Of a stretch of 64,000 bases of DNA, positions 19,092 to 48,022 are shown one piece after another. Source of the stretch: Flavobacteriales bacterium (GTDB lineage Bacteria > Bacteroidota > Bacteroidia > Flavobacteriales_F > PHOS-HE28). Made by a program: the position numbers and the translations under genes. Under the pieces are notes generated by a model that was not told where the DNA came from, ran no database searches, and saw only the letters and a program-made list of their open reading frames with translations. Location: positions 520,254 to 584,253 of the forward strand of contig JADJQW010000002.1 of assembly GCA_016712535.1 (NCBI GenBank), read 5' to 3'. How positions within the stretch are numbered: position 1 is the first letter of the stretch; each line of letters begins with the position of its first letter.

Positions 19092-19151
19092 GTGTTCGGT
19101 TTTTTCTTCGCCGGGCGAAAGTAGTGCCATGCGGTACGGACCTTTGAGGCC

Positions 19152-19529
19152 ATGAGCGAGGAGGCCAACACATCGCTGTCGAAAGGCGAGCTGGATGGCC
19201 TGCGCCCCTGGCTCGATCGCGCTGAAGTGCTCACATCGACCGTGCAGCAGCTCCGCAAGGACCTCGCGCTCGCAGAGGCGGACTTGCCGGAGCCTGGAGC
19301 GGTGGAGGGGGCCTTTGAGGAATTGCGTGCCGGAGTGCTTGCGCGACTCATGGAATTGGAGCGGGGAAGCGGGAATGCGGTGCAAACGGCCATGTACCGC
19401 GTCGACATCCCCGAGCGCCACTTGCAGCGCGCATTGGAAAGCGGAGGGCTCCACGCATTGGCCGGTGAATGCGTGCTCCGCGCGCTCCAGAAGGTATTGA
19501 CCCGCCTGCGCTTCGCGGGCCGATTCTGA
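19152..19529 (+). CDS. Small hypothetical protein (125 aa)
   Basis: ATG-initiated, GC3-rich ORF in the gap between the 18219..19091 gene and sucA. No recognisable family. Confidence 0.35.
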   Translation: MSEEANTSLSKGELDGLRPWLDRAEVLTSTVQQLRKDLALAEADLPEPGAVEGAFEELRAGVLARLMELERGSGNAVQTAMYRVDIPERHLQRALESGGLHALAGECVLRALQKVLTRLRFAGRF

Positions 19530-19629
19530 GCCTTGGCAATCGGGCTCCATTTGTGGATTCGGTCGTTCACAACCACCGACCGTCACATCCTTCAACCCCC
19601 AGCCGCAGGAATACCTTTGCGCCGCCTCC

Positions 19630-31653: not shown

Positions 31654-31773
31654 GGGTTGAAGAGGTTGAGCGGTTGAGAGTTGCGCCTGCGCGCAGGCTG
31701 GCGCCGGTTGAAGGTTGAACACCCCCCAACCTTCATCAACCCTCAACCTCTTCAACCATCAACCTCACAACCT
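31654..31773. repeat. Composite inverted-repeat element built from GGTTGAR heptads (left half) and YTCAACC heptads (right half) around a central palindrome GCCTGCGCGCAGGC
   Basis: 16-bp perfect arms GGTTGAAGAGGTTGAG (31655..31670) and CTCAACCTCTTCAACC (31742..31757). Inner imperfect arms GGTTGAAGGTTG / CAACCTTCATCAACC. At least 5 GGTTGA and at least 5 TCAACC copies. Located in the divergent intergenic region between the EI24-like and DUF5606 genes. Confidence 0.6.
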
Positions 31774-31784
31774 ACTTTCGCCCC

Positions 31785-32333
31785 ATGGATTTGAGCAAGA
31801 TCATCACCGTAGCGGGCAAGCCCGGATTGCACCGTGTCGTGGCGCAAGGCCGCCAAGCCATCATCACCGAATCGCTGGCCGATGGCAAGCGCGCGCCGGT
31901 GCCCTTGAGCGTGAAGGTGAGCAGCCTCGATGAGATCAGCATGTTCACCACCGGCGACGATGTGCTGCTGAAGGACGTGCTCGCGAAGCTGCACGAAGTG
32001 AACGGTGGAGGCGCCGCCGCTGATCCGAAGAGCGACGACAACACGCTCTGGGAAGCGCTCCTCAAGGCCCTGCCCACTGCCGACCGTTCGCGCATCTATG
32101 CCAGCGACGTGCGCAAGCTCTTCACCTGGTACGGCCAGTTATTGAAGGCCGGTGAGTTCGAGAAGAAGGAGGAGCCTGTGAAAGAGGCCGAGTCCAAAGA
32201 GGCTGCACCCGAGAAGAAGACCGTGGAGAAGGCCGTGAAGAAGAAGGCCGATGCCGCCGCGAAGGTGAAGCCGGCCAGCAGCGGCGCCCCCAAGGCAGCG
32301 GCCGTTCGCCGGGGTGGCCAGCGCGGCAGCTAG
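31785..32333 (+). CDS. DUF5606-family protein with Lys/Ala-rich basic tail
   Basis: MDLSKIITVAGKPGLHRVVAQGRQAIITESL matches the Bacteroidetes DUF5606 N-terminus. The C-terminal third is low-complexity KEAE/KKK. Confidence 0.55.
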   Translation: MDLSKIITVAGKPGLHRVVAQGRQAIITESLADGKRAPVPLSVKVSSLDEISMFTTGDDVLLKDVLAKLHEVNGGGAAADPKSDDNTLWEALLKALPTADRSRIYASDVRKLFTWYGQLLKAGEFEKKEEPVKEAESKEAAPEKKTVEKAVKKKADAAAKVKPASSGAPKAAAVRRGGQRGS

Positions 32334-32437
32334 GACGCAGCGAACCAAGCCCGGCCCGGAAGGGTTTCAAGGCAACCCATGAGGCGCGTCAGGAAGCGGG
32401 CTCCGCGCCCGGCTATCTTGCTCGCCCAACGCCACGC

Positions 32438-34429
32438 ATGAAACGCATCCGTACCCTCTCCGCTCGCACTTTCGCAATCGCTGTAATCGTAGGCCTCGTG
32501 TCCGTGCTGGTGGCTTGGAACCAGGACGGGCTTCCGGAAGCCAAGGCGTACCACTCGCAGGCCGAGATCGACGCTTTCCGAGGCGGCGGACAAGGGCTCT
32601 CCAGCGGCGCCAACAACTTCTTCCGCGCCAGCGGCGATTGCTACGGCTGCCACGGCCCGGACAACATCGGCCCGGTGTTCGCCAACCGCGACGCCAACGG
32701 GCACGATGTGAACCCCATCGATTCCTGGCGCAGCAGCATGATGGGCAACAGTGCCCGTGATCCCTTCTGGCGCGCCAAGGTGAGCCATGAGGTGAGCGTG
32801 AATCCGGGCCATCAGACGGCATTGGAGGACAAATGCACCAGCTGCCATGCACCCATGGGCCGCTACGACAAGCACCTCATGGGAGCGGGACCCTTCAGCA
32901 TCGCTGAGCTCGTGCAGGATCCCATCGCCCTCGATGGCGTGAGCTGCCTGGCCTGCCATATGCAGAAGCCGGATAGCTTAGGCCTGCTCTTCAGCGGCAA
33001 CCTGAAGTTCGAGACCAGCGGCATCCTCTATGGACCCTACGGAGGACCGGAGGAAGAGCCCATCTTCGGATCGCCCATGGCCGGCTTCGTGGGCTACGAG
33101 CCGCTTTGGGGGCCTCACCTAAGTGATGCAGGCACCTGCGCCGGCTGCCATACGCTCATCACTGAGACCGCCGACCTCGATGGCAATCTCACGGGCGATG
33201 AATTCGTGGAGCAGGCCACCTACCACGAGTGGCTCAACTCGTCCTACAACACCGATGCGGATCCCGAGAACGGCCTCAGCTGCCAGGCCTGCCACATGCC
33301 GCGCATCAGCGACGCCGTCGTGATCTCCGCCCTCTATGATTTCCTCACCCCGCGCACGCCTTTCGGTAAGCACCACCTTGTCGGCGCCAACGTGTTCATG
33401 CTGAACCTGCTCAAGCACAATAACACCGCGCTCGAGCTCACGGCCAACCAGGTGCATTTCGACAGCACCATCGCACGCACCGAACGCATGCTTCAGCAGC
33501 AGACCCTCCTGATCGAGACCTCGGTCATCGACCGCACCGCTGACCTCGCGTCCATCGATGTGAAGCTCACCAACCTCGCCGGCCACAAGTTCCCGAGCGG
33601 CTACCCCGCGCGCCGCGCCTTCATCGAGCTGCATGTGCAGGACGACGCGGGCAACACCCTCTTCCGCAGCGGCAATTGGGACGGCACCTATGAGGTCGTG
33701 GGTCACGATGCCGATTGGGAGCCTCACCACGATGTGATCACCAGCGAGGATCAGGCCCAGATTTATGAGATGGTCATGGGCGATGTGAATGGCGATAAGA
33801 CGACCGTCCTCGAGCGCGCGAAGGAGCCATTGAAGGACAACCGCCTCGCTCCGCTCGGATTCACCACCTCGCACATCAGCTACGACACCACGCTGATCGC
33901 CGGTGTCCCGCCCGAAGACCTTGACTTCAACCGCTTCACCAATGGCACCGAGGGCAGCGGCACCGACATCACGCATTACCAGATCGCCATGGGTGGCTAC
34001 TCCGGCGCGATCACCATCACCGCTCGCGTGTGGTACCAGAGCGCGCCGCCGCGCTGGATGGAGGAGATGTTCGAGTTCAACACGCCCGCCATCGACACCT
34101 TCCGGGACATGTACGAGGCCGAGGACGGCAGCCCGACGCTGGTGAAGGAGGAGGTGATCGTGGATACGAGCCTCGAGATCGACAACCTCGCCGAAGCAGG
34201 CATCCGCATCTTCCCCAATCCAGTGCGCGATGGACTGCTCCGCATCGAGGGCATCAGCGAGAAGGTGCGCAGCATCGAGGTGCTCGATATCAAGGGAGCG
34301 CGTCTGGCCCTGTTGCGCCGCAACCTCGAGCAAAGCTTCACCGTGCGGCTGCCCGACGCGCCCGGCACCTACCTGGTGGTGATCGAAGTGGCCGGCAAGC
34401 GCTTCGTGGAGCGCGTGGTGAGGCCCTAG
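32438..34429 (+). CDS. Pentaheme c-type cytochrome with a T9SS type-A C-terminal sorting domain
   Basis: Signal peptide. Five CxxCH motifs (CYGCH ~aa68, CTSCH ~133, CLACH ~170, CAGCH ~234, CQACH ~282), then a ~280-aa haem-free domain. C-terminus IRIFPNPVRDGLLRIEG...GTYLVVIEVAGKRFVERVV is a T9SS CTD. Confidence 0.75.
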   Translation: MKRIRTLSARTFAIAVIVGLVSVLVAWNQDGLPEAKAYHSQAEIDAFRGGGQGLSSGANNFFRASGDCYGCHGPDNIGPVFANRDANGHDVNPIDSWRSSMMGNSARDPFWRAKVSHEVSVNPGHQTALEDKCTSCHAPMGRYDKHLMGAGPFSIAELVQDPIALDGVSCLACHMQKPDSLGLLFSGNLKFETSGILYGPYGGPEEEPIFGSPMAGFVGYEPLWGPHLSDAGTCAGCHTLITETADLDGNLTGDEFVEQATYHEWLNSSYNTDADPENGLSCQACHMPRISDAVVISALYDFLTPRTPFGKHHLVGANVFMLNLLKHNNTALELTANQVHFDSTIARTERMLQQQTLLIETSVIDRTADLASIDVKLTNLAGHKFPSGYPARRAFIELHVQDDAGNTLFRSGNWDGTYEVVGHDADWEPHHDVITSEDQAQIYEMVMGDVNGDKTTVLERAKEPLKDNRLAPLGFTTSHISYDTTLIAGVPPEDLDFNRFTNGTEGSGTDITHYQIAMGGYSGAITITARVWYQSAPPRWMEEMFEFNTPAIDTFRDMYEAEDGSPTLVKEEVIVDTSLEIDNLAEAGIRIFPNPVRDGLLRIEGISEKVRSIEVLDIKGARLALLRRNLEQSFTVRLPDAPGTYLVVIEVAGKRFVERVVRP

Positions 34430-34447
34430 CGCTTCTACCTTGCCGCC

Positions 34448-35659
34448 ATGAAGACCAGAAGCCTGCTGCTCGTCGCAGCGTTCGCGCCATTGCTCGCGGG
34501 CGCCCAGCATCCCGTGATCCAAGGCATCCTCGATGAAGTGCGCATCGACAGCATGATGGGGTGGGTGAGCGAGGTCAGCGGCGAGGTGCCTGTGATGATT
34601 GATGGGCAGGAACACACCCTGCTGAGCCGGCACAAGAACAACGAAGGCAACAACCTCGCTCAGGCCTGGCTGATGCAGAAGCTCGTGCAGCTGGGCTATG
34701 CGCCCGTGGAGCAGCCCTTCAACAGCACGGGAAGGAACATCCTGGTGACCAAGCCCGGCAACGGGAGCACCGAGGAGATCGTGATCATCTGCGCGCACTA
34801 CGATGCCATGCCCGCTGGCATCGTGAATGCACCGGCGGCCGACGATGACGGCAGCGGCGTGGCTGCGGTCCTGGAGGCGGCGCGGGTGCTGCGCGACATC
34901 GACTTCGTGCATCCCATCGTGTTCGCGCTCTGGGACGAAGAGGAGCAAGGCAAGGTGGGCAGCGCATTCTATGCAGGCGCGATGGCCGCGAACGATGCGC
35001 TCATCAAGGCCGCGATCAACATGGACGCCATCGCCTACGACGGCAATGCCGATGCGAAGGCGCGCATCCACACGCGGCCCATCGCCAACTCGCTGGCCAT
35101 CGCCGATACGGTCTTCAGCGTGCATCAGCAATACGGCATCGGCCTCGACCTGATCCTCACCAACCCCGGCGCCACCTACAGCGACCACGCTTCGTTCTGG
35201 AACGAGGGCTACGGTTCCGTGCTCGTGATCGAAGAGTTCACCAACGACGGCAACCCGCATTACCACACGCCCACCGACCTCACGCAATACTTCGACGTGC
35301 CGTATTATGAGAAGCTCGCCAAGCTGAGCATCGCCAGCACGGCCGCGCTTGCGATCCCGGTCACGGTCGACATGAACGTGGTGGAGGTCAACGCCGCGCC
35401 CCTGACGCTCTACGCTTACCCGAACCCCGCTGGAGATGCCGCAGGGCTATGGATCGAAATGCCCGTTGCCAGCCGTGCGCGCCTTTCAATCCACGATGCG
35501 CTTGGCCGCGAGCTGGACCTGCTTCATGACGGCATGCTCCCGAGCGGGAAGTCAGCGTTCACGGTTGACCTGCAAGGGCTGCCGGCCGGCGGTTATGTGG
35601 CCCGCGCGGCGATCGAAGGCCGCGAGGTCAGGTCGGTGCGGCTGATGAAGCTGCCCTGA
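34448..35659 (+). CDS. M28-family aminopeptidase with a T9SS C-terminal sorting domain
   Basis: ICAHYDAMP...ADDDGSGVAAVLE...ALWDEEEQGKVGS...SDH. M28 Zn-ligand pattern. C-terminus LYAYPNPAGDAAGLWIEM...GGYVARAAIEGREV is a T9SS CTD. Starts 19 bp after the cytochrome gene. Confidence 0.75.
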   Translation: MKTRSLLLVAAFAPLLAGAQHPVIQGILDEVRIDSMMGWVSEVSGEVPVMIDGQEHTLLSRHKNNEGNNLAQAWLMQKLVQLGYAPVEQPFNSTGRNILVTKPGNGSTEEIVIICAHYDAMPAGIVNAPAADDDGSGVAAVLEAARVLRDIDFVHPIVFALWDEEEQGKVGSAFYAGAMAANDALIKAAINMDAIAYDGNADAKARIHTRPIANSLAIADTVFSVHQQYGIGLDLILTNPGATYSDHASFWNEGYGSVLVIEEFTNDGNPHYHTPTDLTQYFDVPYYEKLAKLSIASTAALAIPVTVDMNVVEVNAAPLTLYAYPNPAGDAAGLWIEMPVASRARLSIHDALGRELDLLHDGMLPSGKSAFTVDLQGLPAGGYVARAAIEGREVRSVRLMKLP

Positions 35660-36277
35660 TCAGTCCTTGGTGAAGGGCTTGGCCAACACCCGGCCATCGC
35701 GCTCGGTGATCAACAGGAAGTAATTCGAGGGCTTCAGCGCGCTCACATCGAGCGCGAGCACGCGACTCGCCACGATGCCCTGTTCCATCACCGCTTCGCC
35801 GCTGAGGTTGATCACGGTGATCGATCGCGCATCTACGCCACCCAAGTCAACGGTCAGCCAATCGGCGGCCGGTATCGGGCTCAGGCGCACGTCGGCGGTT
35901 TCCCCCACCTCGGCCACGCCCGTGGGGTCGATCACCGTGATGGTGCCGAACTGCGTGGCTGCATGCCCATTCCCATCGCATTCGTAGTTGTACACGCCCG
36001 GGATGGTGAAGGTGAAGGTGTACGTCCAATTCCCGCTTGCGGTGTTGCCGCTCGTGAAGCCTTGCGGATTGCTCGGGAAATCGCTCAAGGTGCCATTCAC
36101 GTTGTGCGTGCCGCTCTGGTTCTCCCAGCGCACCTGATCGCCCACGTCGATGGTGAGGAATTGCGGGCTGTAATAGGGGTCGGTGCTGCCGATGGTGCTG
36201 CCTCCGGATTGCACGATCCAGAGTGCGGCGGAAGCGGTGAAGGGGAGAAGCAGCAGGGATGAGGCGAGAAGACGCAT
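35660..36277 (-). CDS. Cupredoxin (plastocyanin/azurin-like type-1 copper) domain protein with a T9SS C-terminal sorting domain
   Basis: Signal peptide MRLLASSLLLLPFTASA. Candidate Cu ligands H (GTHNVNG) ... C-(x4)-H-(x3)-Q (YECDGNGHAATQ), i.e. azurin-like spacing with Gln at the axial position. C-terminus VINLSGEAV...NYFLLITERDGRV is a T9SS CTD. Confidence 0.65.
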   Translation of the reverse strand: MRLLASSLLLLPFTASAALWIVQSGGSTIGSTDPYYSPQFLTIDVGDQVRWENQSGTHNVNGTLSDFPSNPQGFTSGNTASGNWTYTFTFTIPGVYNYECDGNGHAATQFGTITVIDPTGVAEVGETADVRLSPIPAADWLTVDLGGVDARSITVINLSGEAVMEQGIVASRVLALDVSALKPSNYFLLITERDGRVLAKPFTKD

Positions 36278-36358
36278 GCGGTTCTTGAGTTTGGCGCGAA
36301 AGATACCCGGGGTACTAACCGGGCCCGATCTTCCTGCGCACCATGCTTGGCATCGCAC

Positions 36359-38545
36359 TCACCGGACGTCCGGCCGCACGTGTTCGTCGATGTAGCCCAG
36401 CACCTTCTCCATCAGGTGCAGGCGGTCCTTGCCGCGCACGTTATGGCCATGGCCCGGGTAGTTGAAGAATTCCACCTGCACGCCAGCGGCCACGCAGGCC
36501 TTCAGGAACTGGTAGCTGTGCTCGGGCACCACGGTATCGTCCTTGCCGCCAGTGATGATCAGCAAGGGGTCCTTCAGGTCCTTAGCGAAGTTGCTCAGGG
36601 TGGTTGCGGCATAGCCTTCAGGGTTCTCCTGTGGCGTGTCCATGTAGCGCTCGCCGTACATCACTTCATACAGGCTCCAATCGATCACCGGCCCACCGGC
36701 TGCGCCCGCTCTGAATGCGCCGGGATGCCGCGTGAGCATGGCGGTGGTCATGTGCCCGCCGTAGCTCCATCCGTGGACGGCTAAGCGGTCGCCATCGACC
36801 CAAGGCTGTTCCTTCAGCCAGGCCACGCCGCGCATCTGGTCCTTCACCTCCACCACCCCGAGCTGGCGGTGCACCACTTGCTCGAAGTCACGGCCGCGGT
36901 TCGGTGTTCCATGCCCATCCACGGTGAAGACCACATAACCGCGCTCGGCCGCGTGAAGCATCCATGCGGACGCGCCGCCGAGGAAGGAGTTGCTCACCAA
37001 CTGCACATGCGGTCCGTTATAGACGTAGACCAGCACCGGGTAGCGCTGCCGCGATTGGAAGGTGCTCGGCTTGATCACGCGCGCGTTGAGCCTGTCTCCG
37101 TTCTCGCCTTCGATGCTGAGCAGTTCGATGCTGCCCACCTGATGCCCCGCGAACGGGTCCTTCGCGTCAACCAGGGTCTTCATCGCCGAGCCATCGCGCG
37201 TGTTGCGGATCATGCTGCGGTTGGGCACCGTGAGGCTGCTCCACGTGTCGAGGAGGTATTTGCCATCGCTGCTGAGCTGGCCGTGGTGCGAGCCAGGCTC
37301 GCTCGTGAGCCGCGTGGTGCGCCCGTTGGCGAGGTCGATGCGGTAGAGGTGCGTCTCCAGTGCACCGGCGGGATTCTTCGGGTCGATGTTGCCCGTGCCC
37401 TCGACGATCGCGAATGACTCCTTGGGGTCGAGGCCCACGATGCGCTCCACTTCCCACGCGCCTTGGGTGAGCTGGCGCACGAGCCCTTTCTTCACATCGT
37501 AGAGGTAGAGGTGCTGCCAGCCATCGCGACGGCTGCGCCAGATGAACTGCGTGGGCCGTGTCTTCAGGTGGCGCGCAGCCTGAAGCGGCTCGATGTACTT
37601 CTCGTCGCGCTCGGTGAACACAGTGCCTTCGGCTTCGCCGGTGGCGGCATCGTAGCGCACCATGCGCAGGTTCTGCGTGGCGCGGTCGATGTGGGCCACG
37701 AGCAAGTGCTGCTCGTCGGGCTCCCAACTGATGTTGGTGAGGTACTGGTCCAGCGGCTCGCCCGTCTTCAGGAACACGGTGCTGCCTGTGTTCATGTCGT
37801 GCACACCGATGGTGACGTGGTGGCTGGCCTGCCCCGCCATAGGGTAGCGGATGGGCTCGAAGGTGCTGGGCTTGGTGCCGATGTCCTCGAGCATGTAGGT
37901 GCTCACCATGGATTCATCCATGCGGTAGAAGGCGAGCTTGCCGCCCTTCGGCGCCCAGAAGAGGCCTTTCTCCACGCCGTATTCCTGCCGGTGCACGCTC
38001 TGTCCGTTCACGATGCCGTTGCCGCCATCGCTCGTGATCGGCGTGGGCTTGTTCTTGCCCTCGCCGGCGCGCATCACCAGGATGTTATCGTCCTTCACGA
38101 AGGCCACGGCTCCCGTGCTGGGCTCGATCTCCTCATGACCGGAACCGGCCTCGATCCTCGTCACGGCCTGCAATTCGGCTTTCGCGAGGTCGTAGGCGTA
38201 GAAGCGCTGGTTATGCACGAAGGTGAAGCGGTTCGCATTGCTCCAGGTGATCGGCAACCACGCTTTCAGTTTGGCGCTATCCGGAAGCTGCGCATTGATC
38301 GCGCTCAGTTCCACCAGCACGCGGTCCATGCTCTTGCCGATGTCGCCGCGCATGAGCTGCTCGCCCTTCACGTAACTGTAGCGTTGCGCGCCTTCGATCC
38401 ATTGCAGGCCGCGCAGGCGCTCCGGCGCGAGTTCGGTGCCGGCCTTCAGAACGGCATCTTTCAAGGTGAGCGGTTGCAGCTGCGCGGAAAGCAGCAGGGC
38501 TGTGCCAACGAATGAGGGCGCCAGGAGCGCGCGGAGTGCGAGCAT
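36359..38545 (-). CDS. S9-family serine peptidase (dipeptidyl-peptidase IV-like: beta-propeller plus alpha/beta-hydrolase)
   Basis: 728 aa. N-terminal propeller region. Catalytic GWSYGG nucleophile elbow, then downstream D and H (…GKDDTVV…GHGH). Confidence 0.8.
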   Translation of the reverse strand: MLALRALLAPSFVGTALLLSAQLQPLTLKDAVLKAGTELAPERLRGLQWIEGAQRYSYVKGEQLMRGDIGKSMDRVLVELSAINAQLPDSAKLKAWLPITWSNANRFTFVHNQRFYAYDLAKAELQAVTRIEAGSGHEEIEPSTGAVAFVKDDNILVMRAGEGKNKPTPITSDGGNGIVNGQSVHRQEYGVEKGLFWAPKGGKLAFYRMDESMVSTYMLEDIGTKPSTFEPIRYPMAGQASHHVTIGVHDMNTGSTVFLKTGEPLDQYLTNISWEPDEQHLLVAHIDRATQNLRMVRYDAATGEAEGTVFTERDEKYIEPLQAARHLKTRPTQFIWRSRRDGWQHLYLYDVKKGLVRQLTQGAWEVERIVGLDPKESFAIVEGTGNIDPKNPAGALETHLYRIDLANGRTTRLTSEPGSHHGQLSSDGKYLLDTWSSLTVPNRSMIRNTRDGSAMKTLVDAKDPFAGHQVGSIELLSIEGENGDRLNARVIKPSTFQSRQRYPVLVYVYNGPHVQLVSNSFLGGASAWMLHAAERGYVVFTVDGHGTPNRGRDFEQVVHRQLGVVEVKDQMRGVAWLKEQPWVDGDRLAVHGWSYGGHMTTAMLTRHPGAFRAGAAGGPVIDWSLYEVMYGERYMDTPQENPEGYAATTLSNFAKDLKDPLLIITGGKDDTVVPEHSYQFLKACVAAGVQVEFFNYPGHGHNVRGKDRLHLMEKVLGYIDEHVRPDVR

Positions 38546-38587
38546 GAGATTCGGGTTGCGGTGGGCGAAGATGCCGAAAGCGCTTGA

Positions 38588-39649
38588 TCACTCCGGATCA
38601 CTGAACGCCGGATCGTTCAGGAAGCGCTCATCGGTGAGGGCTTGCAGGAAGGCCTTGAGGTCGGCGCGCTCCTGGGCATCGAGGTCGATCTGGCCGCTGG
38701 TCCATGGCCACATGTGATTGTCCAGATTGGGCTCATTGATGTTCACGCTGTCGGCGTAGAAGTCGATCACTTCTTCAAGCGTGGCGAAGCGCCCATCGTG
38801 CATGTAGGGCGCGGTGACGGCAATGTTGCGCAGGCTGTTCACCTTGAAGCGGCCGCGGTCGCTCACGAGTCCGGTGATCTCCGCCAATCCTTGATCCGGT
38901 CCGGGCGCCATGCCGATGTTGCGTAGGTCGTGGTCCTGGAAGAGCGGCGCCATGTGGCAGAGGTCGCACTCGGCTTCGCCGAAGAAGAGGTCCATGCCGC
39001 GTATCTCGGCATCGGACATGGCCGTGGCATCACCGCTGTAGAAGTAGCGGTCGAAGGGCGAATCGAAGCTGAGCAGCGTGCGCTCGAATTGCGCTATGGC
39101 TTTCACCACGCGCACGCTGTCAATGTCCGGTGATCCGAAGGCGCGTGCGAAAAGCTCGGGATAGTTGGGCAGTCGGCGGAGCCGTTCCTCCACCACGGGC
39201 CAGCTGTTGCGCATCTCGAGGTGATTCACCACGGGGCCGAAGGCTTGCTCTTCCAACGAAGCCGCGCGGCCATCCCAGAAGAGGAGATGGTCCCAGAGCA
39301 TGTTCTGCACGGGCATCGATTGCCGCCGCCCCACGGACCCATCCGATCCGAGCGAGAATCTACGCGGGTCGCTGAAGGCGAACTCCTGCTGGTGGCAGCT
39401 GCTGCAGCTGATCGAGTAGTTGTCCGACAGCGCTTTCTCATAGAACAGCTTGCGGCCCAGCGCAACGCCTTCCACGGTGAGCGGATTGTCGGCGGGCAGG
39501 TTCATCGGATGCGGCAGGTTCTGCGTCCAAGGCGGCAGTTCCAGCGCCAAGGGCGTGGGCCCCGTGAAGGCATCGGCCTGCTCCACGGCGGGATCCTTCC
39601 GGCACGCCGCGATGGCGAGCAAGGCGAAGAGGAAGGGGAGGCGCCGCAT
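38588..39649 (-). CDS. Di-haem cytochrome c peroxidase (CCP/MauG family), lipoprotein
   Basis: Lipobox LLAIAAC. Two haem sites, CSSCHQQ and CDLCHMAP. Conserved ...VTAPYMHDGRFATLEEVIDFY block. Confidence 0.8.
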   Translation of the reverse strand: MRRLPFLFALLAIAACRKDPAVEQADAFTGPTPLALELPPWTQNLPHPMNLPADNPLTVEGVALGRKLFYEKALSDNYSISCSSCHQQEFAFSDPRRFSLGSDGSVGRRQSMPVQNMLWDHLLFWDGRAASLEEQAFGPVVNHLEMRNSWPVVEERLRRLPNYPELFARAFGSPDIDSVRVVKAIAQFERTLLSFDSPFDRYFYSGDATAMSDAEIRGMDLFFGEAECDLCHMAPLFQDHDLRNIGMAPGPDQGLAEITGLVSDRGRFKVNSLRNIAVTAPYMHDGRFATLEEVIDFYADSVNINEPNLDNHMWPWTSGQIDLDAQERADLKAFLQALTDERFLNDPAFSDPE

Positions 39650-39676
39650 GCGTGGCGAAGATCGATAGTGCGACGA

Positions 39677-40750
39677 TCAACGGCGGTGACCGGGGGGGCC
39701 GAAACGCGGATTAACGAGGAAAGCCGAATCGGTGAGCGTGCGCAGGAAGGCCACCAGGTCCGTGCGGTCCTGCTTGGAGAGCCGCACTTCGCCTTTGCGC
39801 CAGGGCAGCATGTGCTCATCGAGCGTGGGCGATGCCGTGAACACGTCATCCGCATAGAAATCGACGACCTGCTCCAGCGTGGCGAATCGGCCATCGTGCA
39901 TGTAGGGCGCCGTAACGGTGATGTTGCGGAGCGAAGGGGTCTTGAATCGCCCCGCGTGCCAGGGCAGGCCCGTGCGAGCACCCATGCCGAGGTCCGTGGG
40001 CACGCTGTCGAGCCCGATGTTCAGCACATGATGCCCCTTGAAGAGCGGCGGCTCGTGGCAATCGACGCAATGCGCGCGGGTGAAGAAGAGGTCCTTGCCG
40101 CGCTTCTCCTGCGCATTGAGCGCATCGGCCTGCTTCCCGTAGAAGTAGCGGTCGAATCGCGAATCGAGTGAGACCATGGTGCGCTCGAACTGCGCCAGGG
40201 CGAATGCGATGCGCAGGCTGTCGATGCGCGCATCGCCGAAGGCGGCGGCGAAGAGCGGCGGATAACGCTTGTCCTGCGCAAGGCGATGGCTCACTTCGAT
40301 CCAGCGGCTCGCCATCTCGCGGTGCGCGGTCACCGGCTCGAAGGCCTGCAGCTCGAGGCTGAGGGCGCGGGCGTCCCAGAAGAAGAAATGGTCCCACGCC
40401 AGGTTCATCAAAGGCATGCTGTTGCGCGCGGTGCGCTGGCCGCTCATGCCGCTGGAGAAGCGCGCGCTATCCGCGAAGGCGAAGCGCTGCAGGTGGCAAC
40501 TGGCGCAAGAGAGCGATCCATCGGCGCTCAGCGCTTTCTCATGGAAGAGCATGCGGCCCAGCGCTGCGCCTTCCACGGTGAGCGGATTATCGTAGGGGGA
40601 ATCGAGGCGGAGCGCGGTGTCGGCGATAGCCCAGGCGGGGAGCTCGAGTCGCAGGGGTGTTGATCCGGTTGGTGCAGCGTTCTTGGGCGGATGATGGCAT
40701 GCCATCAGGGCCGCGAGAGCGGTCGGAAGTACGAATCGATTCGCTGACAT
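39677..40750 (-). CDS. Di-haem cytochrome c peroxidase paralog (CCP/MauG family), lipoprotein
   Basis: Lipobox ALMAC. CASCHLQ and CVDCHEP haem sites. About 55% identical to the downstream paralog (VTAPYMHDGRFATLEQVVDFY). Confidence 0.8.
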   Translation of the reverse strand: MSANRFVLPTALAALMACHHPPKNAAPTGSTPLRLELPAWAIADTALRLDSPYDNPLTVEGAALGRMLFHEKALSADGSLSCASCHLQRFAFADSARFSSGMSGQRTARNSMPLMNLAWDHFFFWDARALSLELQAFEPVTAHREMASRWIEVSHRLAQDKRYPPLFAAAFGDARIDSLRIAFALAQFERTMVSLDSRFDRYFYGKQADALNAQEKRGKDLFFTRAHCVDCHEPPLFKGHHVLNIGLDSVPTDLGMGARTGLPWHAGRFKTPSLRNITVTAPYMHDGRFATLEQVVDFYADDVFTASPTLDEHMLPWRKGEVRLSKQDRTDLVAFLRTLTDSAFLVNPRFGPPGHRR

Positions 40751-40764
40751 GGCGGGGTCCGGAT

Positions 40765-41067
40765 TCAGCGCCGCCGCTTCTTCGATCGCAATGGCCTGCG
40801 ACTCGTATGGAAAACACTGTACACAATGGCTAGGCCATCCGTCAACTCGAACACGATGCAATACGGGAAGTCCTGGACCGGGGCGTATCGGAATCCGTTC
40901 ACCCGTTCAGGGTAGCTGCATGTCACGCGAACCAGGTCCTCAATGGCTTTGAGCACTGCTGTTTCGAAGCGCGCGCCAAGTTTCGGTTGCTCGAGCTCGT
41001 AGTGCAATGAGGCCTCCTGCCATTCCTGCCAAGCCAGGTCGCGCAGCTCAATGGCCTTCGCCTTCAT
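40765..41067 (-). CDS. Type II toxin, RelE/ParE family
   Basis: 100 aa; ...FRYAPVQDFPYCIVFELTDGLAIVYSVFHTSR matches the RelE/ParE C-terminal pattern. Start overlaps the antitoxin stop (ATGA). Confidence 0.65.
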   Translation of the reverse strand: MKAKAIELRDLAWQEWQEASLHYELEQPKLGARFETAVLKAIEDLVRVTCSYPERVNGFRYAPVQDFPYCIVFELTDGLAIVYSVFHTSRRPLRSKKRRR

Positions 41068-41285
41068 GCGCGCTTGCGCTTCAGCATGGCCTTCACCTCC
41101 TTCAGGGAGTATCCCTTGCCTTTGCCTTGCCGCCGCGCTTCTCGCCGCTCCTCGAGCATGGCCAATTGCTCCTTGGTGAATCGGAACTCGCCGGCCTCAG
41201 CCTCCAACGCCTTGCTCACCTTGGCCAGCACATGTTCATCATTGGTGGCAATGATGCGTTCGATCAGGTCGAGCTTCGTGAACAT
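41064..41285 (-). CDS. Antitoxin, putative addiction-module component (TIGR02574-like)
   Basis: 73 aa; MFTKLDLIERIIATNDEHVLAKVSKALEAEA... resembles TIGR02574-family antitoxins. Immediately upstream of the RelE/ParE toxin. Confidence 0.6.
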   Translation of the reverse strand: MFTKLDLIERIIATNDEHVLAKVSKALEAEAGEFRFTKEQLAMLEERREARRQGKGKGYSLKEVKAMLKRKRA

Positions 41286-41339
41286 GATCCCGTGTTTCGG
41301 CCAAAGCTATGCGCCGGGCATGCCCGTTGGATGCTGGTC

Positions 41340-41450
41340 ATTGGCATTCAACCCTCAGCCCTCGAACGCTGCAGCATCAGTGACGGCTGTTAACCCTCAA
41401 CCTGCCTTGTCATCCCGGGCTTGACCCGGGACAACCCTCAACACCCAACC
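41340..41450. repeat. Array of CAACCCTCARC motifs plus a 7-bp palindrome (TCCCGGG-CTTGA-CCCGGGA) in the antitoxin/murB intergenic region; shares an exact 12-mer with the 31654..31773 element
   Basis: TTCAACCCTCAGCC, TTAACCCTCAACCTG and ACAACCCTCAACACCCAACC, read directly. AACCCTCAACCT also occurs at ~31735. Confidence 0.4.
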
Positions 41451-41452
41451 GC

Positions 41453-42466
41453 CTAGATGATATTCACCTCGCGCTCCAGCTCCACGCCGAAACGCTCGCG
41501 CACGCTGCGAAGCACTTGATCGCTCAGTTCCCAGACCTCAGCGCCTGTGGCGCCGCCGTGGTTCACCAGCACCAGTGCCTGCTTCTCATGCACCCCGCAT
41601 GCGCCGATGCGCCTGCCCTTCCAGCCGCATTGCTCAATGAGCCAGCCTGCCGCGAGCTTGCTGTGGCCTTCGCCTGCTGGATAGACCGGTGCGTTCGGGT
41701 GAGCGAGCTTGATGCGCTCTGCGACGCGTGCATCCACCACCGGGTTCTTGAAGAAGCTCCCTGCGTTGCCCAGCACCTTGGGGTCGGGCAATTTGCTGCT
41801 TCGGATGGCGATCACGGCATCGCTCACATCCTTGATCGTCGGTTGCGCCACGCCCATTCGGGACAGCTCACCTTGGATGTCGCCGTAGGCGGTGCGGATG
41901 AGGTGATCGCGCTTCGTGAGGGTGAAGCTGACATTCAGGATGATGAAACGATCCTTGCCCTCGCGCTTGAAGAAGCTCTCGCGGTAGCCGAACGCACAAG
42001 CCGAGCGATCGAAGCGAATGATCTCACCATCGCTCACGCGCAAGGCTTCCAGCGACACGAAGCAATCCTTGATCTCCACGCCATAGGCGCCGATATTCTG
42101 CATCGGCGCGGCGCCCACCTTGCCGGGAATCAGGCTGAGGTTCTCGAGCCCGCCCCAGCCCTTGGCCACGCAATGCATCACCAGGTCATGCCACACCACG
42201 CCAGCGCCAGCGCGCACCACGACGCGATCGTCGGTCTCGGCTTCGATTGCGATGTCCGGGACTTCATTCAGCAGCACCAGTCCTTCGAAATCGCGGGTGA
42301 AGAGGATGTTGCTGCCGCCGCCAAGCACGAGGCGCGGCAGGGCGCTGAGCTCGGGCGCGGCCAGCAGCGCGCGCAATTCTTCCACCGTTTGGAATCGGCC
42401 AAGTGCATCCGCCTTTGCGGCTATGCCGAAGGTGTTGAAGGGCTGGAGGTCGGCGTTGCGGAGCAC
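41453..42466 (-). CDS. murB: UDP-N-acetylenolpyruvoylglucosamine reductase
   Basis: 337 aa; FNTFGIAAKADALGRFQTVEELRALL...LVLGGGSNILFTRDFEGLVL. FAD-binding MurB. Confidence 0.85.
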   Translation of the reverse strand: MLRNADLQPFNTFGIAAKADALGRFQTVEELRALLAAPELSALPRLVLGGGSNILFTRDFEGLVLLNEVPDIAIEAETDDRVVVRAGAGVVWHDLVMHCVAKGWGGLENLSLIPGKVGAAPMQNIGAYGVEIKDCFVSLEALRVSDGEIIRFDRSACAFGYRESFFKREGKDRFIILNVSFTLTKRDHLIRTAYGDIQGELSRMGVAQPTIKDVSDAVIAIRSSKLPDPKVLGNAGSFFKNPVVDARVAERIKLAHPNAPVYPAGEGHSKLAAGWLIEQCGWKGRRIGACGVHEKQALVLVNHGGATGAEVWELSDQVLRSVRERFGVELEREVNII

Positions 42467-42619
42467 GTCTATAGGCGGACAAGTTTACCGGAGAAAGCAC
42501 AGCCATGAGTGCAGGGTAATTGCGGCGCCGGATGCCTAGCCTATTGCGATTGCTCTTAGATTCGCTCTGCCGTGGCCAATAGCATGGTCCGAATTAGGTC
42601 TGAACAAACACGACCAGAC

Positions 42620-43588
42620 ATGCACTCGGCATTCCAGCTTTGCCTTGCGCTGCTTGCGCCCGGCTTGTGCGCACAAAACCTGGTGCCCAATCCGAGCTTC
42701 GAGATGGTGGATACATGCCCGCAGTTTCCCCTCGTGCTGGGCTACCAGCCAGGGGCGGTGCCCCAGCATTGGTACAGTTCGAGCGATACCCCGGATTATT
42801 TCAACTCTTGTGAGGATAACGATGTTGGCGGTGTACCTAACAACGTTTTCACGCACCAATTGGCTCACGATGGGGGCGCATATTCGGGAATGTGGTCATT
42901 CCTCGCGGACGACCATAGGGAGATGATTGGAGTTGAGTTATTGAGCGACCTGGTCGTCGGTGAGACCTACTACGCAAGTTTCTACGCCAACGCTGCTTTC
43001 GGCGGCAGTCAGGGAACCGGCCGCGTATGCGATAATCTCGGGTTGCTCTTTTGCACAGCCCCGTACTACTGGCTCTATGGGTCGTCCATGCCGGAATTCG
43101 GCTGTCGCAACTACGCGCACGTGTGGTCAACCGAGGTCATCAGCGATACCTCTGCGTGGGTGCTCGTGAGCGGGGCATTCGTTGCGGATTCAGCCTATCG
43201 GTACATGGTTGTTGGGAATCACTTCGACAACGCCAACACGGTTACCGATAGCCTGGGCCCGAACCCGAACGCCTATCAATTGGTTGATCAGGTCTGTGTC
43301 TCACTGAACCCTTCGCAATGCCCGTTGATCAACGGAGCGGGAGAGTTTTCCAGGACATGGATTGGTGTCCATCCGAATCCTGCGAAGGATGTATTCCAGG
43401 TCTCCTGGGAAGGGCGGGCCAACCGACTGCATGTGTTCGATATGGTCGGTCGGAGCATCTGGCAGGCCACAACACAGGGCGAGAATGGTCTTGTGGTCGA
43501 TGTTGCGCACTGGGCTCGTGGCCACTATGCAATGATTCTCGAAGGGGATAGCTGGTGCTACTCGCACAAGTTAGTTCTGGTGGAGTGA
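42620..43588 (+). CDS. Hypothetical secreted protein with a T9SS type-A C-terminal sorting domain (lower-GC gene)
   Basis: Signal peptide MHSAFQLCLALLAPGLCAQN. C-terminus IGVHPNPAKDVFQVSWEG...GHYAMILEGDSW is a T9SS CTD. Noticeably more A/T at third codon positions than neighbouring genes. Confidence 0.55.
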   Translation: MHSAFQLCLALLAPGLCAQNLVPNPSFEMVDTCPQFPLVLGYQPGAVPQHWYSSSDTPDYFNSCEDNDVGGVPNNVFTHQLAHDGGAYSGMWSFLADDHREMIGVELLSDLVVGETYYASFYANAAFGGSQGTGRVCDNLGLLFCTAPYYWLYGSSMPEFGCRNYAHVWSTEVISDTSAWVLVSGAFVADSAYRYMVVGNHFDNANTVTDSLGPNPNAYQLVDQVCVSLNPSQCPLINGAGEFSRTWIGVHPNPAKDVFQVSWEGRANRLHVFDMVGRSIWQATTQGENGLVVDVAHWARGHYAMILEGDSWCYSHKLVLVE

Positions 43589-43614: not shown

Positions 43615-45672
43615 ATGGAGAACTGGAAAACCTTCAAAAGCCTTGGCTTGGTCGTGTTCCTATTCGTCAGTGCGAAAGGCAAGGGTCAAGTATCGCAGCT
43701 GAACAATACGGTTACCGCCGTGACCGACTACATAGGCTGCGACGTGAACAGCAACCAGCCGTTGCGATTCACAACGCAGTTGAACTTTCCACATCAATGG
43801 CGAACGGATAATGCACTCCGGATGCGGCTTACACAAACGCTTACGGGCCAGTCAGTGAACGGCTAAGGAAACCGGGACCTGTCAGGGCATCTGGGAATTG
43901 GCCTGTTCACGGATCCGGATGTGAACCGGCCCTTCTCCATGCTTCACATTGATTCGGCGGGCGGGCAGGACACCGGCTACCGCCCGTGGATGAAGGTGGG
44001 CATGACGCTCACTCAATGGTCGGACCTGAGCTACTTCGGCCTGAAATCGGAGAGCAACGACGACAACCATGCGGTGATTGCTTGGAGCGATAACCAAACG
44101 GGCTTGGATGGCCCGGACCTGTTGAAATTCATCTTTTTGATGAACAACAACACAAGCGGTCCAACGGCCGCTTTGGACAATGGTTTGGAGGCGGCCCGCT
44201 TCCTGCCACACACCAGCGGGAATCAATCGTTCTTCGGTGTTGGAGATTGGTTCACGGCTGGCCTCAATCCGACGGAACGCGTCGATCTTCTTGATGGTCG
44301 CTTACGCATCCGCCAGCTTCCGGATGATTCGGAGACTGACCAGGCCTTCAAGGTGATGGTAGTGGACGACACGAACGACCCGTTGGAACGCGGTGTGGTG
44401 AAGTGGAAGAACATCAACCTAAGCGCTGATTGCGATTGGGTGGTGCAGACTGGAGACCCGCATGTGTCGAGCGTGTACGATGGGAGCAGCTGCTTGTGGG
44501 ACCGTCGGCATGGCGTGGGCATCGGCATGGATGTGCCCCGCGCCAAATTGCACGTGCATCACAACAACTATGAGTTGCTAGCTCGCATTGGTACCTGGTC
44601 TAGGACCGAGTCGGATGATTTTCAGAATGAGTTCCAGGGGGTCTTGGGCGAATGTGGTCCTATAGATCCTGACGGCTTCTTTGGCCACGCTGAAGGAGTA
44701 CAAGGACTCGCCTACAACTGCAAGACCACCATCGGTGTGCATGGCCACGGCCGTTACGACTCCCAACAACCGGGAACCGGCACCGGATTCCTGGTGGGCG
44801 TGCTCGGCGTGGCCGAGTACGATCAGCCGTGGCAGGCTTCATTCTCCGCAGGCGTGTATGGTCGATCCATAGCCCCGCAAGGCGCTGGCCAGGCATGGGC
44901 TGGTTTCTTCCAGGGCGATGTGATGATCACCGGGAACGGTTTTGTTAATGGGGCCATCCCCATCACCTCCGATGCTCAGTTCAAGACCGGCGTGGAGGAA
45001 TTGACAGGCGCCTCGGAGTTGCTATCTGCCTTGCAGCCGAAGCGCTACTCCTTCAATGACCTTGGGCAATCCGTGGTCGGTTTGCCGGATGGTGAGCAAC
45101 TCGGGTTCATCGCGCAGGAATTGGAGGAGGTGCTTCCAGATTTGGTGCATGAAACACAGCGACCGGCTGATCTGAATGATGCAGGCGATGTCGTCCAAGA
45201 AGCCATCGACTACAAAGCGGTGAACTACATCGGGCTCATCCCGGTCCTGGTTGCGGGCTTCCAGGAATTGCAAGGGCGCGTTGCGGCGCAGGAGTCGGTG
45301 ATCGCGCAGCTCCAGGAAGAACTCGCCGCCTGTTGCGCCGCCTCGAACGACGATGGCACGCGCTCAATTACGGGGAGCACGACCGATGAGGGCTCCATCA
45401 CCCCCACCCAGGAGCGCCTGCTCCGCATCGCACCCAATCCCTTCACCGACCGCACCACGCTCTTCTGCACGCTGGAGCACGCAGGCCGCATGCAGTTGCT
45501 GGCCAACAGTACCGATGGCCGCAGCTTGATGGTGCTGAGCGAGGGCCAGCGCGAGGCCGGTGAGTTCCAGTATGAATGGAGCACGGAGAAACTCGCGCCC
45601 GGCGTGTACTACATCAACCTCTTGCTCGACGGCGAGCCGGTGGTGAAGCGCGCGGTGAAAGTGGGGAAGTAA
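43615..45672 (+). pseudogene. Tail-fibre-domain / S74 intramolecular-chaperone-domain surface protein with a T9SS CTD, interrupted by a single in-frame TAA at 43864..43866
   Basis: ORF 43615..43866 (signal peptide MENWKTFKSLGLVVFLFVSAKG) and ORF 43921..45672 are in the same frame, separated only by TAA. The downstream part has no start or signal peptide of its own. It ends with an endosialidase-chaperone-like segment (LSALQPKRYSFNDLG...GFIAQELEEVLPDLV...IDYKAVNYIGLIPVLVAGFQEL) and a T9SS CTD (LRIAPNPFTDRTTL...GVYYINLLLDGE). Confidence 0.5.
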
Positions 45673-45799: not shown

Positions 45800-45810
45800 C
45801 TTTGGCGCTC

Positions 45811-46914
45811 ATGCGTGCCCTCGTCTGCGTCACCAACGACCTCAGCACCGATAACCGCGTGCACCGCACCTGCGTGGTGCTGCGCGAGTTGGGCTACGAG
45901 GTCCTGCTGGTGGGGCGGCTGTTGCCCGATAGCCTTCCGCTCCAGCGGCCCTACGGTACCAAGCGCATGCGGCTGCTCTTCCGCAAGGGGCCGATCTTCT
46001 ACGCCGAGTACAACCTGCGGCTCCTTTTCCTCCTGCTCTTCAGCAAGGCCAACCTGATCGTGGCCAACGACCTCGACACCTTGCTGGCCTGCTACCTGGC
46101 GAAGGGGAAGCGCGCGCTGGTTTATGACAGCCACGAGTACTTCACCGAGGTGCCGGAGATCCAGGGCCGTTTCGCGAAGCGCGCATGGCTGGCCATCGAG
46201 CGCTGGATCTTCCCGAAGCTGCGGCACGTGATCACCGTGAACGGCAGCATTGCAAACGCCTACCGTGAGCGCTACGGAGTGCCTGTGGAGGTCGTGCGCA
46301 ACATCCCCATGCACAAGGAGCTCGGACCGTTGCCCTCGCGCAGCGATCTGGACCTGCCCGAGGACCGCTTCATCCTCGTCCTGCAGGGCAGCGGCATCAA
46401 CGTGGACAGGGGAGGCGAAGAGGCGGTGCTGGCGATGAAGGAGCTGCCCGATGCCCTGCTGCTCATCATCGGTGGCGGTGATGCATGGCCTTTGCTGGAG
46501 CGTTTGGTCAAGGAGCAAGCGCTTGAAGGCCGCGTGCGCCTCTTGCCGCGCATGCCCTACGAGCGCATGATGCAGTACACGCGCAACGCCGACCTCGGCC
46601 TCTCGCTCGACAAGGACACCAGCCTCAACTACCGCTTCAGCCTGCCAAACAAGCTCTTCGACTACTTCCGCGCGCACATCCCGGCGCTGGTGAGCGAACT
46701 CCCTGAGGTCGCCGGGATCGTGCGTCGGTACGAGGCGGGCATCGTGATCCCGCGCGTGGAGCCTGCGGTGATCGCCGCCGAGGTGCGCCGCTTGATGCCC
46801 GATCGCGCGCGCCGTGATGCCTTGCGGCTGAAGGCTATTTTCGCCGCCACTGAATTGGATGGCGAGCGCGAGAAGGAAGCGCTGAAGGCCTTCCTGCGAC
46901 GCGTTGGCGGATAA
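45811..46914 (+). CDS. Glycosyltransferase, GT4-like (GT-B fold)
   Basis: About 365 aa. N-terminal MRALVCVTNDLSTDNRVHRTCVVLRELGYEV and a C-terminal E-x7-E-like region, typical of GT-B retaining transferases. ATG 45811; the ORF-track start at 45802 is TTG. Confidence 0.65.
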   Translation: MRALVCVTNDLSTDNRVHRTCVVLRELGYEVLLVGRLLPDSLPLQRPYGTKRMRLLFRKGPIFYAEYNLRLLFLLLFSKANLIVANDLDTLLACYLAKGKRALVYDSHEYFTEVPEIQGRFAKRAWLAIERWIFPKLRHVITVNGSIANAYRERYGVPVEVVRNIPMHKELGPLPSRSDLDLPEDRFILVLQGSGINVDRGGEEAVLAMKELPDALLLIIGGGDAWPLLERLVKEQALEGRVRLLPRMPYERMMQYTRNADLGLSLDKDTSLNYRFSLPNKLFDYFRAHIPALVSELPEVAGIVRRYEAGIVIPRVEPAVIAAEVRRLMPDRARRDALRLKAIFAATELDGEREKEALKAFLRRVGG

Positions 46915-48022
46915 GCATCTACATATCGTCTCCTTCGACGTGCCCGCCCCACCAAGCTATGGCGGCGTGATTGACGTGTACTACAAGGCGAAAGCGCTCG
47001 CGGAGCTGGGGGTGAAGGTCCATCTGCACTGCTTCCACTACGGCCGGCCCAAGGCGAAGGAACTGGAGCGCTTCTGCGCCAGCGTGCACTACTACCCGCG
47101 CAACACCGGCAAACTGCAGTTGCTCAATGCGCTGCCCTACGTGGTGGTGAGCCGCCGCAGCGAAGCGCTGATGGAGCGCTTGCTCCAGGATGAGCACCCC
47201 ATCCTCTTCGAGGGGCTGCACTGCTGCTACCACCTCGGCGATCCGCGCCTGCACGGCCGCATCCGGATCGTGCGCGCGCACAACGTGGAGCACGACTACT
47301 ACGGCGCGCTCGCGAAGGCGGCATCGAACGCCTTCCGCCGCACCTACTTCATCAACGAGGCGCACAAGCTGCAGCGCTTCGAGCCGGTGCTGGCCGAAGC
47401 CACGCGCGTGCTGGCCATCTCGCCGAAGGACGAGGCCTACTTCGGGTCGCACTTCCACAACGTGGCGCATGTGCCGGCCTTCCATGCCAGCGAGAAGGTG
47501 GAGGTGCCCGATGGACTCGGCGATTTCGCGTTCTACCACGGCGCCTTGGGCGTGGCGGAGAACGATCAAGCCGCGCTCTACCTGGTGAAGAAGGTCTTCG
47601 AGGGACTGCCCGTGAAGCTCGTGATCGCAGGCAGCGACGCCAGCGCAGAGCTGAAGCGCGCTGTGGCTAAGGCGCCGAATGCGGAATTGCGCGAGGGCAT
47701 CTCCACGGAGCAGATCCATGCACTGGTCCGTAGCGCGCAGGTGAACGTGCTGCCCACGTTCCAGGCCACGGGCATCAAGCTGAAGCTGCTGCTCTGCCTC
47801 TTCACCGGCCGCCACGTGGTGTGCAACACGCCCATGGTGGAGGGCACCGGCCTCGAAGGGCTCTGCCATGTGCACGACGATCCGAGGAGCATGCGCGAGA
47901 GCATCCTGGCGTGCATGGGCAAGCCCGCGAATGGCCAGGCCTTGGAGGAGCGTGCGCAAGTGCTGGAGGAGCGCTTCAGCAACTGGAGGAACGCGGAGCG
48001 GATCGTTGGGTTGCTGGGTTAG
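46904..48022 (+). CDS. Glycosyltransferase family 1-like protein
   Basis: 372 aa; MADKHLHIVSFDVPAPPSYGGVIDVYYKAKALAELGVKVHLHC... GT-B N-terminus. Overlaps the upstream GT by 11 bp, suggesting an operon. Confidence 0.6.
   Translation: MADKHLHIVSFDVPAPPSYGGVIDVYYKAKALAELGVKVHLHCFHYGRPKAKELERFCASVHYYPRNTGKLQLLNALPYVVVSRRSEALMERLLQDEHPILFEGLHCCYHLGDPRLHGRIRIVRAHNVEHDYYGALAKAASNAFRRTYFINEAHKLQRFEPVLAEATRVLAISPKDEAYFGSHFHNVAHVPAFHASEKVEVPDGLGDFAFYHGALGVAENDQAALYLVKKVFEGLPVKLVIAGSDASAELKRAVAKAPNAELREGISTEQIHALVRSAQVNVLPTFQATGIKLKLLLCLFTGRHVVCNTPMVEGTGLEGLCHVHDDPRSMRESILACMGKPANGQALEERAQVLEERFSNWRNAERIVGLLG

Follow-up and report, generated by a model that had tools for sequence, protein, structure and literature searches.

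The window analysed here is a stretch of 64,000 nucleotides from a Flavobacteriales bacterium (contig JADJQW010000002.1, positions 520,254 to 584,253 of the forward strand) with a GC content of 63%, and the subject of this work is a block of genes within it that runs from a DUF5606 gene to the gene for MurB. The block encodes a five-haem c-type cytochrome, a cupredoxin, two di-haem proteins of the CCP_MauG family (called CCP1 and CCP2) and two peptidases, of families M28 and S9. An earlier note on this DNA had proposed that the redox genes provide a coordinated redox or peroxide-handling function at the cell surface. We suggest instead, with a probability of roughly 0.55, that these envelope genes were correctly identified, that they are functionally separate and that they are adjacent by descent in one clade.

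Gene layout of the block

Open reading frame (ORF), Pfam and NCBIfam searches recovered all the genes described in the earlier note at the positions it gave. The third of the three peptidases that it placed in the region 34448-40750 is an S46/DPP7 enzyme encoded at 26601-28844, beyond that region. The block comprises the following features, where visual inspection was used to call signal peptides, lipoboxes and the active-site motifs of peptidases and T9SS denotes the type IX secretion system.

31785..32333, + strand: DUF5606/DUF6852 protein (Pfam PF18347 and PF21186), left edge of the synteny conserved in the clade
32438..34429, + strand: five-haem c-type cytochrome with a T9SS type A C-terminal tag (five CXXCH motifs), outside the region 34448-40750
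34448..35659, + strand: M28 aminopeptidase (PF04389, 108.5 bits)
35660..36277, - strand: type-1 cupredoxin with a signal peptide and a T9SS-like tail (PF00127, 26.8 bits for a cutoff of 21.2)
36359..38545, - strand: DPP-IV-type S9 serine peptidase (PF00930, 231 bits; PF00326, 174 bits)
38588..39649, - strand: CCP1, di-haem CCP_MauG lipoprotein (PF03150, 181.8 bits)
39677..40753, - strand: CCP2, di-haem CCP_MauG lipoprotein (PF03150, 180.4 bits)
40765-41067 and 41064-41285, - strand: pair of small ORFs of 100 and 73 amino acids (ORF calls)
41453..42466, - strand: MurB, a housekeeping protein of cell-wall synthesis (MurB Pfam families recorded on orthologues)

The genes form two convergent strings, the cytochrome and M28 genes on the plus strand and those from MurB through the cupredoxin on the minus strand, and direct reading of the DNA shows that the stop codons of the M28 and cupredoxin genes abut. 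The M28 gene does follow the cytochrome gene in the same orientation, as had been described, at a distance that we measured as 18 nt from stop to start rather than 19 bp. On the minus strand, the gaps are 11 nt between the small ORFs and CCP2, 27 nt between CCP2 and CCP1, 42 nt between CCP1 and the S9 gene and 78 nt between the S9 and cupredoxin genes.

Redox proteins, peptidases and secretion tags

CCP1 and CCP2 share 55% identity; both have a lipobox (LLAIAAC in CCP1, ALMAC in CCP2) and a pair of CXXCH motifs. Among solved structures, CCP1 is closest to 6E1C (E=1.8e-61), which we take to be the di-haem enzyme MbnH, and canonical peroxidases match at 1e-44 or weaker. Tyr298 of CCP1 stands opposite Met258 of the Nitrosomonas europaea CCP (1IQC), the sixth ligand of its electron-transfer haem, and 6E1C also carries a Tyr in this column. 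Among CCP1, CCP2 and 120 homologues, the Tyr is present in 122 of 122 sequences, the inter-haem Trp in 118 and both haem motifs are invariant. A search for CCP homologues returned clade members only (at least 55% identity) and is silent on the partners of this subfamily in other lineages. The canonical enzymes of N. europaea and Pseudomonas aeruginosa (1EB7) share with CCP1 and CCP2 the PF03150 domain, the di-haem architecture and this Trp; they differ by the Met ligand and by the loop His of the N. europaea enzyme, in place of which CCP1 has Ser and most relatives have Thr. His/Met ligation at the electron-transfer haem marks canonical peroxidases and His/Tyr ligation MauG-type enzymes, which are poor peroxidases and use H2O2 to generate an oxidising bis-Fe(IV) state (PMC11892367).

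The Tyr ligand together with the absent distal His thus points to proteins of the MauG/MbnH type and not to canonical peroxide scavengers. Therefore, while the earlier description of tandem lipoprotein di-haem paralogs holds, the label "peroxidase" does not fit this His/Tyr pattern. CCP1 and CCP2 resemble MbnH and MauG in their two c-type haems, sixth-ligand Tyr, inter-haem Trp and lack of the distal His. They differ from them in being lipoproteins, in having no MbnP or methylamine dehydrogenase gene nearby and in occurring as an accessory element of the clade in zero to two tandem copies. They also score below the curated cutoffs of both families, with 277 and 255 bits respectively against 362.85 for MbnH (TIGR04039), and with 207 and 199 bits where the MauG model (TIGR03791) requires 443.85. 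A search confined to the annotated block found no gene for an MbnP-like protein or a dehydrogenase subunit. By their sequences, CCP1 and CCP2 are classified as MauG-type members of PF03150 and not as MbnH or MauG orthologues.

The PF00127 match of the cupredoxin spans positions 9-98 of the 99 of the profile and contains the putative ligand motif C100-x4-H105-x3-Q109, with H58 upstream. Read directly from the DNA, the corresponding codons lie at 36106-36104 (His58), 35980-35978 (Cys100), 35965-35963 (His105) and 35953-35951 (Gln109). The AlphaFold2 model (mean predicted local distance difference test, pLDDT, 88) consists of a cupredoxin sandwich followed by a separate C-terminal beta-sandwich, in which Cys100 ends one strand and Gln109 just precedes the next, as in cupredoxins. 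Its top Foldseek matches include pseudoazurin, plastocyanin and amicyanin (TM-scores 0.6-0.79, normalised to the target), and in a sequence search of the PDB, His58 and Cys100 fall opposite the corresponding copper ligands of a cyanobacterial plastocyanin. In an alignment of 25 family members, H58 and C100 never vary, H105 hardly does and Q109 occurs in 22; in the remotest three, the loop is shorter and a Met stands in or beside the Gln column.

An alignment with reference sequences of azurin, plastocyanin and cucumber stellacyanin places H58, C100, H105 and Q109 with the ligands of plastocyanin and stellacyanin, and Gln109 in the same column as azurin Met121, plastocyanin Met92 and stellacyanin Gln99. 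With azurin, C112, H117 and M121 align and His46 was not put in the His58 column by MAFFT; the Cys and the second His are invariant across the cupredoxin and the three references. All four residues of the H/C/H/Q set proposed in the earlier note thus fall in cupredoxin ligand positions and are conserved in the family, and we predict a type-1 copper site with His/Cys/His/Gln ligation. Its description as stellacyanin-like is borne out by the axial Gln and not by the loop spacing or the nearest folds. Indeed, the loop of stellacyanin is C-x4-H-x4-Q, whereas C-x4-H-x3-Q has the length found in azurin, and, among single-domain folds, the protein comes closest to plastocyanin, pseudoazurin and amicyanin rather than to the phytocyanin type.

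An axial Gln is already known in bacteria, from auracyanin D of Chloroflexus aurantiacus, which has a potential of +90 mV, the lowest quoted for its class (PMC10804444). Auracyanin D and plant stellacyanin have the same set of His/Cys/His and axial Gln as the protein of the window, and by this analogy a low redox potential is a reasonable inference and is probably the case here. The likeness to auracyanin D is one of ligand set; the cupredoxin of the window differs in carrying a putative T9SS tag, by which it is predicted to be displayed at the surface rather than to be periplasmic or tethered to the membrane.

The five-haem cytochrome belongs to a family of 2739 representatives at 50% identity, whose profile matches the pentahaem c552 of T. 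tepidum (5ZE8, E=6.6e-13) and MccSep of Geobacter (9WT8, E=2e-6). MccSep is a five-haem polysulfide reductase in which an Ig-like domain sets a selenocysteine beside a His/Cys-ligated haem (bioRxiv 10.1101/2025.11.18.688581). The window protein has the same order of five haems and then an Ig-like domain, with a loop G-H-x-x-P-x-G-x-P towards a haem. By residue count on the profile alignment, Tyr389 takes the place of the catalytic selenocysteine and the invariant Glu258/Gln259 that of the haem-ligating Cys239. It differs from MccSep and c552 by its T9SS tag, and the homology is detectable only at the profile level. The residues at these positions suggest, across a remote homology, an extracytoplasmic enzyme whose haem pocket is open rather than a simple electron wire; the AlphaFold2 model (mean pLDDT 58.8, mostly < 50 in the haem domain) is too poor for a fold comparison.

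The M28 peptidase scores 70.9 bits against the LapA model, far under its cutoff of 600. The S9 peptidase contains a GWSYGG serine motif and a signal peptide, has no T9SS tag and is predicted to be periplasmic. Against TIGR04183 (cutoff 23), the tag of the cytochrome scores 28.3 bits, that of the M28 peptidase a borderline 22.0 bits (Por_Secre_tail) and the tail of the cupredoxin 19.9 bits, the last also scoring 23.5 bits for a Pfam cutoff of 27. PF18962 is recorded on one M28 orthologue and is precomputed for most cupredoxin homologues. The targeting signals therefore predict the cupredoxin to reach the surface, and the two CCP proteins to be lipoproteins without a clear signal for surface export. 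Predicted T9SS cargo is dense here, with at least 5 tagged proteins in about 30 kb, so that the adjacency of two tagged redox proteins is less improbable than it appears.

Conservation of the gene order within and outside the clade

Loci related to the block were collected by two scans. A cupredoxin-family scan with one genome per species, seeded by an alignment of 14 closer sequences, gave 80 loci, and a metagenome scan seeded with distant cytochrome homologues gave 80 more (L081-L160). In L001-L038 and L050 (cupredoxin identity down to 40%), the order DUF5606, cytochrome, M28, cupredoxin, S9, CCP, MurB is kept. The cytochrome is at least 55% identical in 17 of the 80 metagenome loci, and the block is present there wherever the contig is long enough. 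All the related genomes are metagenome-assembled and locus counts depend on contig ends. Complete blocks, entire from MurB to DUF5606, number 39. They contain the S9 gene in 38 cases, the M28 gene in 37 and the cupredoxin gene in 37. The last count is inflated, since the cupredoxin was itself the bait for 30 of these blocks; among the 9 retrieved through the cytochrome or a CCP, it is found in 7.

The least conserved element is the CCP gene, with zero, one and two copies in 10, 15 and 14 of the complete blocks, respectively. The cupredoxin is kept in 9 of the 10 blocks devoid of CCP genes; conversely, L162 has a CCP gene and no cupredoxin, its S9 and M28 genes overlapping with no space for one. 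On a neighbour-joining tree (a rough distance tree of cytochrome and MurB with midpoint rooting), several independent gains, losses and duplications of CCP genes and two independent losses of the cupredoxin are implied. Tandem duplications give two cupredoxin copies in L003, L004 and L105, and two cytochrome copies in L011 (11861-15838) and L161 (14274-18254).

The conservation extends beyond the redox genes. DUF5606 is present in 49 of 56 clade loci and MurB in 41 of 56. The order breaks beyond DUF5606, where the next gene of the window is kept in 4 of 40 loci. Beyond MurB, the glycosyltransferase gene at 45802-46914 is kept in 26 of the 29 loci with at least 3.5 kb past MurB and the gene after it (46904-48022) in 25 of the 29, and an ABC ATPase and a large TPR protein are retained in many clade loci. 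The conserved stretch thus covers at least 31785-51978 (at least 20 kb) and mixes redox, peptidase, cell-wall and glycosyltransferase genes, in a window that is core chromosome throughout (rpsB, tsf, sucA/sucB, yidC, gyrB). Since MurB is conserved beside the block, the kept order is not specific to redox genes, and since unrelated flanking genes are equally conserved in the clade, the conservation of the neighbourhood carries little weight.

Outside the clade, none of the genes for cupredoxin, CCP, M28, S9, MurB or DUF5606 was found within 10 kb of the cytochrome in 63 loci where it is 37-51% identical. Its recurrent neighbours there are GSDH-type pyrroloquinoline quinone (PQQ) dehydrogenases (13 loci), FG-GAP/UnbV T9SS proteins (8) and TonB-dependent receptors (6), and one representative of the family, protein P0326, is a fusion of GSDH and cytochrome. 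At about 40 loci with distant cupredoxin homologues, which belong chiefly to Saprospiraceae, Lewinellaceae and Crocinitomicaceae, the cupredoxin stands without the cytochrome, CCP, M28 and S9 genes, and an S46 homologue occurs in two. The neighbourhood check suggested in the earlier note therefore gives a divided answer: the order is conserved in related genomes, but in one clade only and together with unrelated genes.

The Gln-type cupredoxin domain recurs in Saprospiraceae and Lewinellaceae as the N-terminus of T9SS proteins of about 1000 residues, which also include OB-fold and DUF5689 domains (L047, L056, L059-L063, L071, L075, L076 and L078; for example L076:3111-6182). These proteins adjoin a TonB-receptor-like outer-membrane protein of 1121 amino acids, which occurs in 12 loci. 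These distant homologues of about 1000 residues give no clue to the function of the cupredoxin of the window.

Several insertions were observed in the syntenic region. An M3 peptidase gene lies between the cytochrome and DUF5606 genes in L006 and L031, a similar gap of about 2 kb is seen in several further loci, and L162 has an insertion for an Rce1-like protease. The region is generally peptidase-rich, given the M3 peptidase of some relatives, and these data fit the suggestion of the earlier note that the peptidases reflect a proteolytic lifestyle. Beyond MurB, a 338-residue protein with a Por_Secre_tail (42572-43588) adds to the T9SS cargo; it and a 583-residue protein (43921-45672) with a Peptidase_S74 chaperone domain and, judged by eye, a tail like a sorting domain together constitute a variable insertion. 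Farther on, an SprB-like protein of at least 2674 amino acids with a type B (CHU_C) tag is encoded at 55971-63995; its ORF begins 5 nt from the end of the window and the true start may fall beyond it.

The pair of small ORFs is a further variable insertion, located between MurB and CCP2 and present only in the window, L004 and L105. The two ORFs overlap by 4 nt in a toxin-antitoxin-like arrangement, and neither matches a Pfam or NCBIfam family. Sigma-70-type promoters and intrinsic terminators occur in 31700-42600 at chance level only, and the window has no excess of the Bacteroidota promoter motif TAnnTTTG (5 matches for 5.0 expected). All five, at 9179, 19612, 26540, 41302 (- strand) and 53866, nevertheless precede a correctly oriented start codon by no more than about 60 nt, the downstream genes being the ORF at 9216, the E1 component of 2-oxoglutarate dehydrogenase, S46, the small ORF pair and gyrB. 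Within the block, the motif marks the small ORF pair only: the promoter-like sequence TAGCTTTG at 41302-41309 is 16 nt upstream of the first small ORF (73 amino acids). Finally, four ORFs of the window have no Pfam match and a coding-like base composition: 16067-18208 (- strand, 713 amino acids), 18219-19637 (- strand, 472), 46904-48022 (+ strand, 372) and 51982-53691 (+ strand, 569).

Interpretation of the block

We propose that one family-level clade of uncultured Flavobacteriales has inherited at least 20 kb of core-chromosome gene order, and that the proteins encoded in the block work separately. We infer the following about cellular locations, redox potential, di-haem chemistry and the lack of one coordinated system. 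The M28 aminopeptidase would be exported by the T9SS and act at the cell surface, and the S9 DPP-IV enzyme would act in the periplasm, both in peptide nutrition. The cupredoxin may be a T9SS-exported one-electron carrier at the surface, and CCP1 and CCP2 would use H2O2 to form a bis-Fe(IV) state that oxidises some substrate, rather than scavenge peroxide. The coordinated surface function put forward earlier is not supported by these data: conservation is restricted to one clade whose flanking genes are equally kept, the CCP genes vary independently and the CCP proteins are of the Tyr type. Among the features expected of a gene cluster, the short gaps between co-oriented genes are observed, whereas conservation beyond synteny and joint gain or loss are not. 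Each component is a further member of a known family, and the cluster as a system is not supported. Several observations weigh against this separation of functions. The cytochrome and cupredoxin genes, both with predicted T9SS tags on their products, occur together in 37 of the 39 complete blocks. The genes for CCP2, CCP1, S9 and cupredoxin lie on one strand with gaps of 27-78 nt, which is compatible with one transcript. Cupredoxins also donate electrons to some di-haem peroxidases, such as pseudoazurin in Paracoccus.

Should a functional link exist, it most likely joins the surface cytochrome to the surface cupredoxin. In this tentative alternative, the T9SS-displayed cytochrome would exchange electrons with the low-potential Gln cupredoxin on the outer face, the CCP proteins being optional, and the pair might work for an oxidoreductase outside the cell or pass electrons to an external acceptor or from an external donor. 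Both proteins bear predicted T9SS tags, their genes are neighbours in 37 of the 39 complete blocks, in a set of about 40 species whose cupredoxins diverge to 40% identity, and the tree suggests that the pairing predates the CCP insertions; elsewhere, the cytochrome family adjoins or is fused to extracytoplasmic PQQ-type dehydrogenases, which points to redox partners outside the cytoplasm. However, the two genes converge and so are not co-transcribed, neither family retains the other as a neighbour outside the clade, adjoining unrelated genes are about equally conserved and two clade members dropped the cupredoxin while keeping the cytochrome. Nor is an outer-membrane electron conduit encoded nearby, and the cytochrome, as a relative of MccSep and c552, is more enzyme-like than wire-like.

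Two further explanations involve the CCP proteins. MauG modifies methylamine dehydrogenase and MbnH modifies MbnP; by analogy, CCP1 and CCP2 could oxidatively modify the cupredoxin, the S9 peptidase or the cytochrome in the periplasm, which we regard as improbable. Their MauG-type ligation, with MbnH as closest solved relative, the usual location of MauG-type genes beside those of their substrates and the close spacing of the CCP genes in co-orientation with the S9 and cupredoxin genes are in its favour, but 10 of the 39 blocks have no CCP gene and yet retain candidate substrates, the block has no MbnP-like gene, CCP1 scores under both curated cutoffs and no conserved candidate target residue was identified. 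The cupredoxin as such a substrate was set aside, being unchanged in the 9 CCP-less blocks that encode it. Classical peroxide detoxification in the periplasm, with the cupredoxin feeding electrons to CCP proteins that convert H2O2 to water, seems very improbable. PF03150 membership, two haems and a conserved inter-haem Trp agree with it, as does electron donation from cupredoxins to peroxidases in other bacteria. Against this, the Tyr replaces Met in every one of the 122 sequences and the distal His is absent, a pattern of poor peroxidases (PMC11892367); the cupredoxin bears a putative tag that would take it beyond the periplasm, so that the predicted compartments differ; and the CCP and cupredoxin genes are lost independently.

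The reading that we prefer carries a lesson of method, namely that a conserved-neighbourhood test can pass and yet say little. It also makes claims of peroxide defence drawn from these genomes unsafe, because the "peroxidases" are predicted from sequence to be MauG-type oxidants. Our literature search returned no paper with both "type IX secretion" and "multiheme", and no link between the T9SS and cupredoxins appeared among the top matches of a broader search, which is weak evidence of absence. A T9SS-displayed module of cytochrome and cupredoxin, if true, would be of a kind not described for Bacteroidota. It is thus conceivable, if rather unlikely in our view, that these uncultured Flavobacteriales, mostly from wastewater and freshwater, display cofactor-loaded redox proteins through the T9SS as an extracellular electron-transfer or oxidoreductase module. 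If the tagged cytochrome and the Gln cupredoxin are indeed partners, they would bear on the extracellular redox biology of Bacteroidota.

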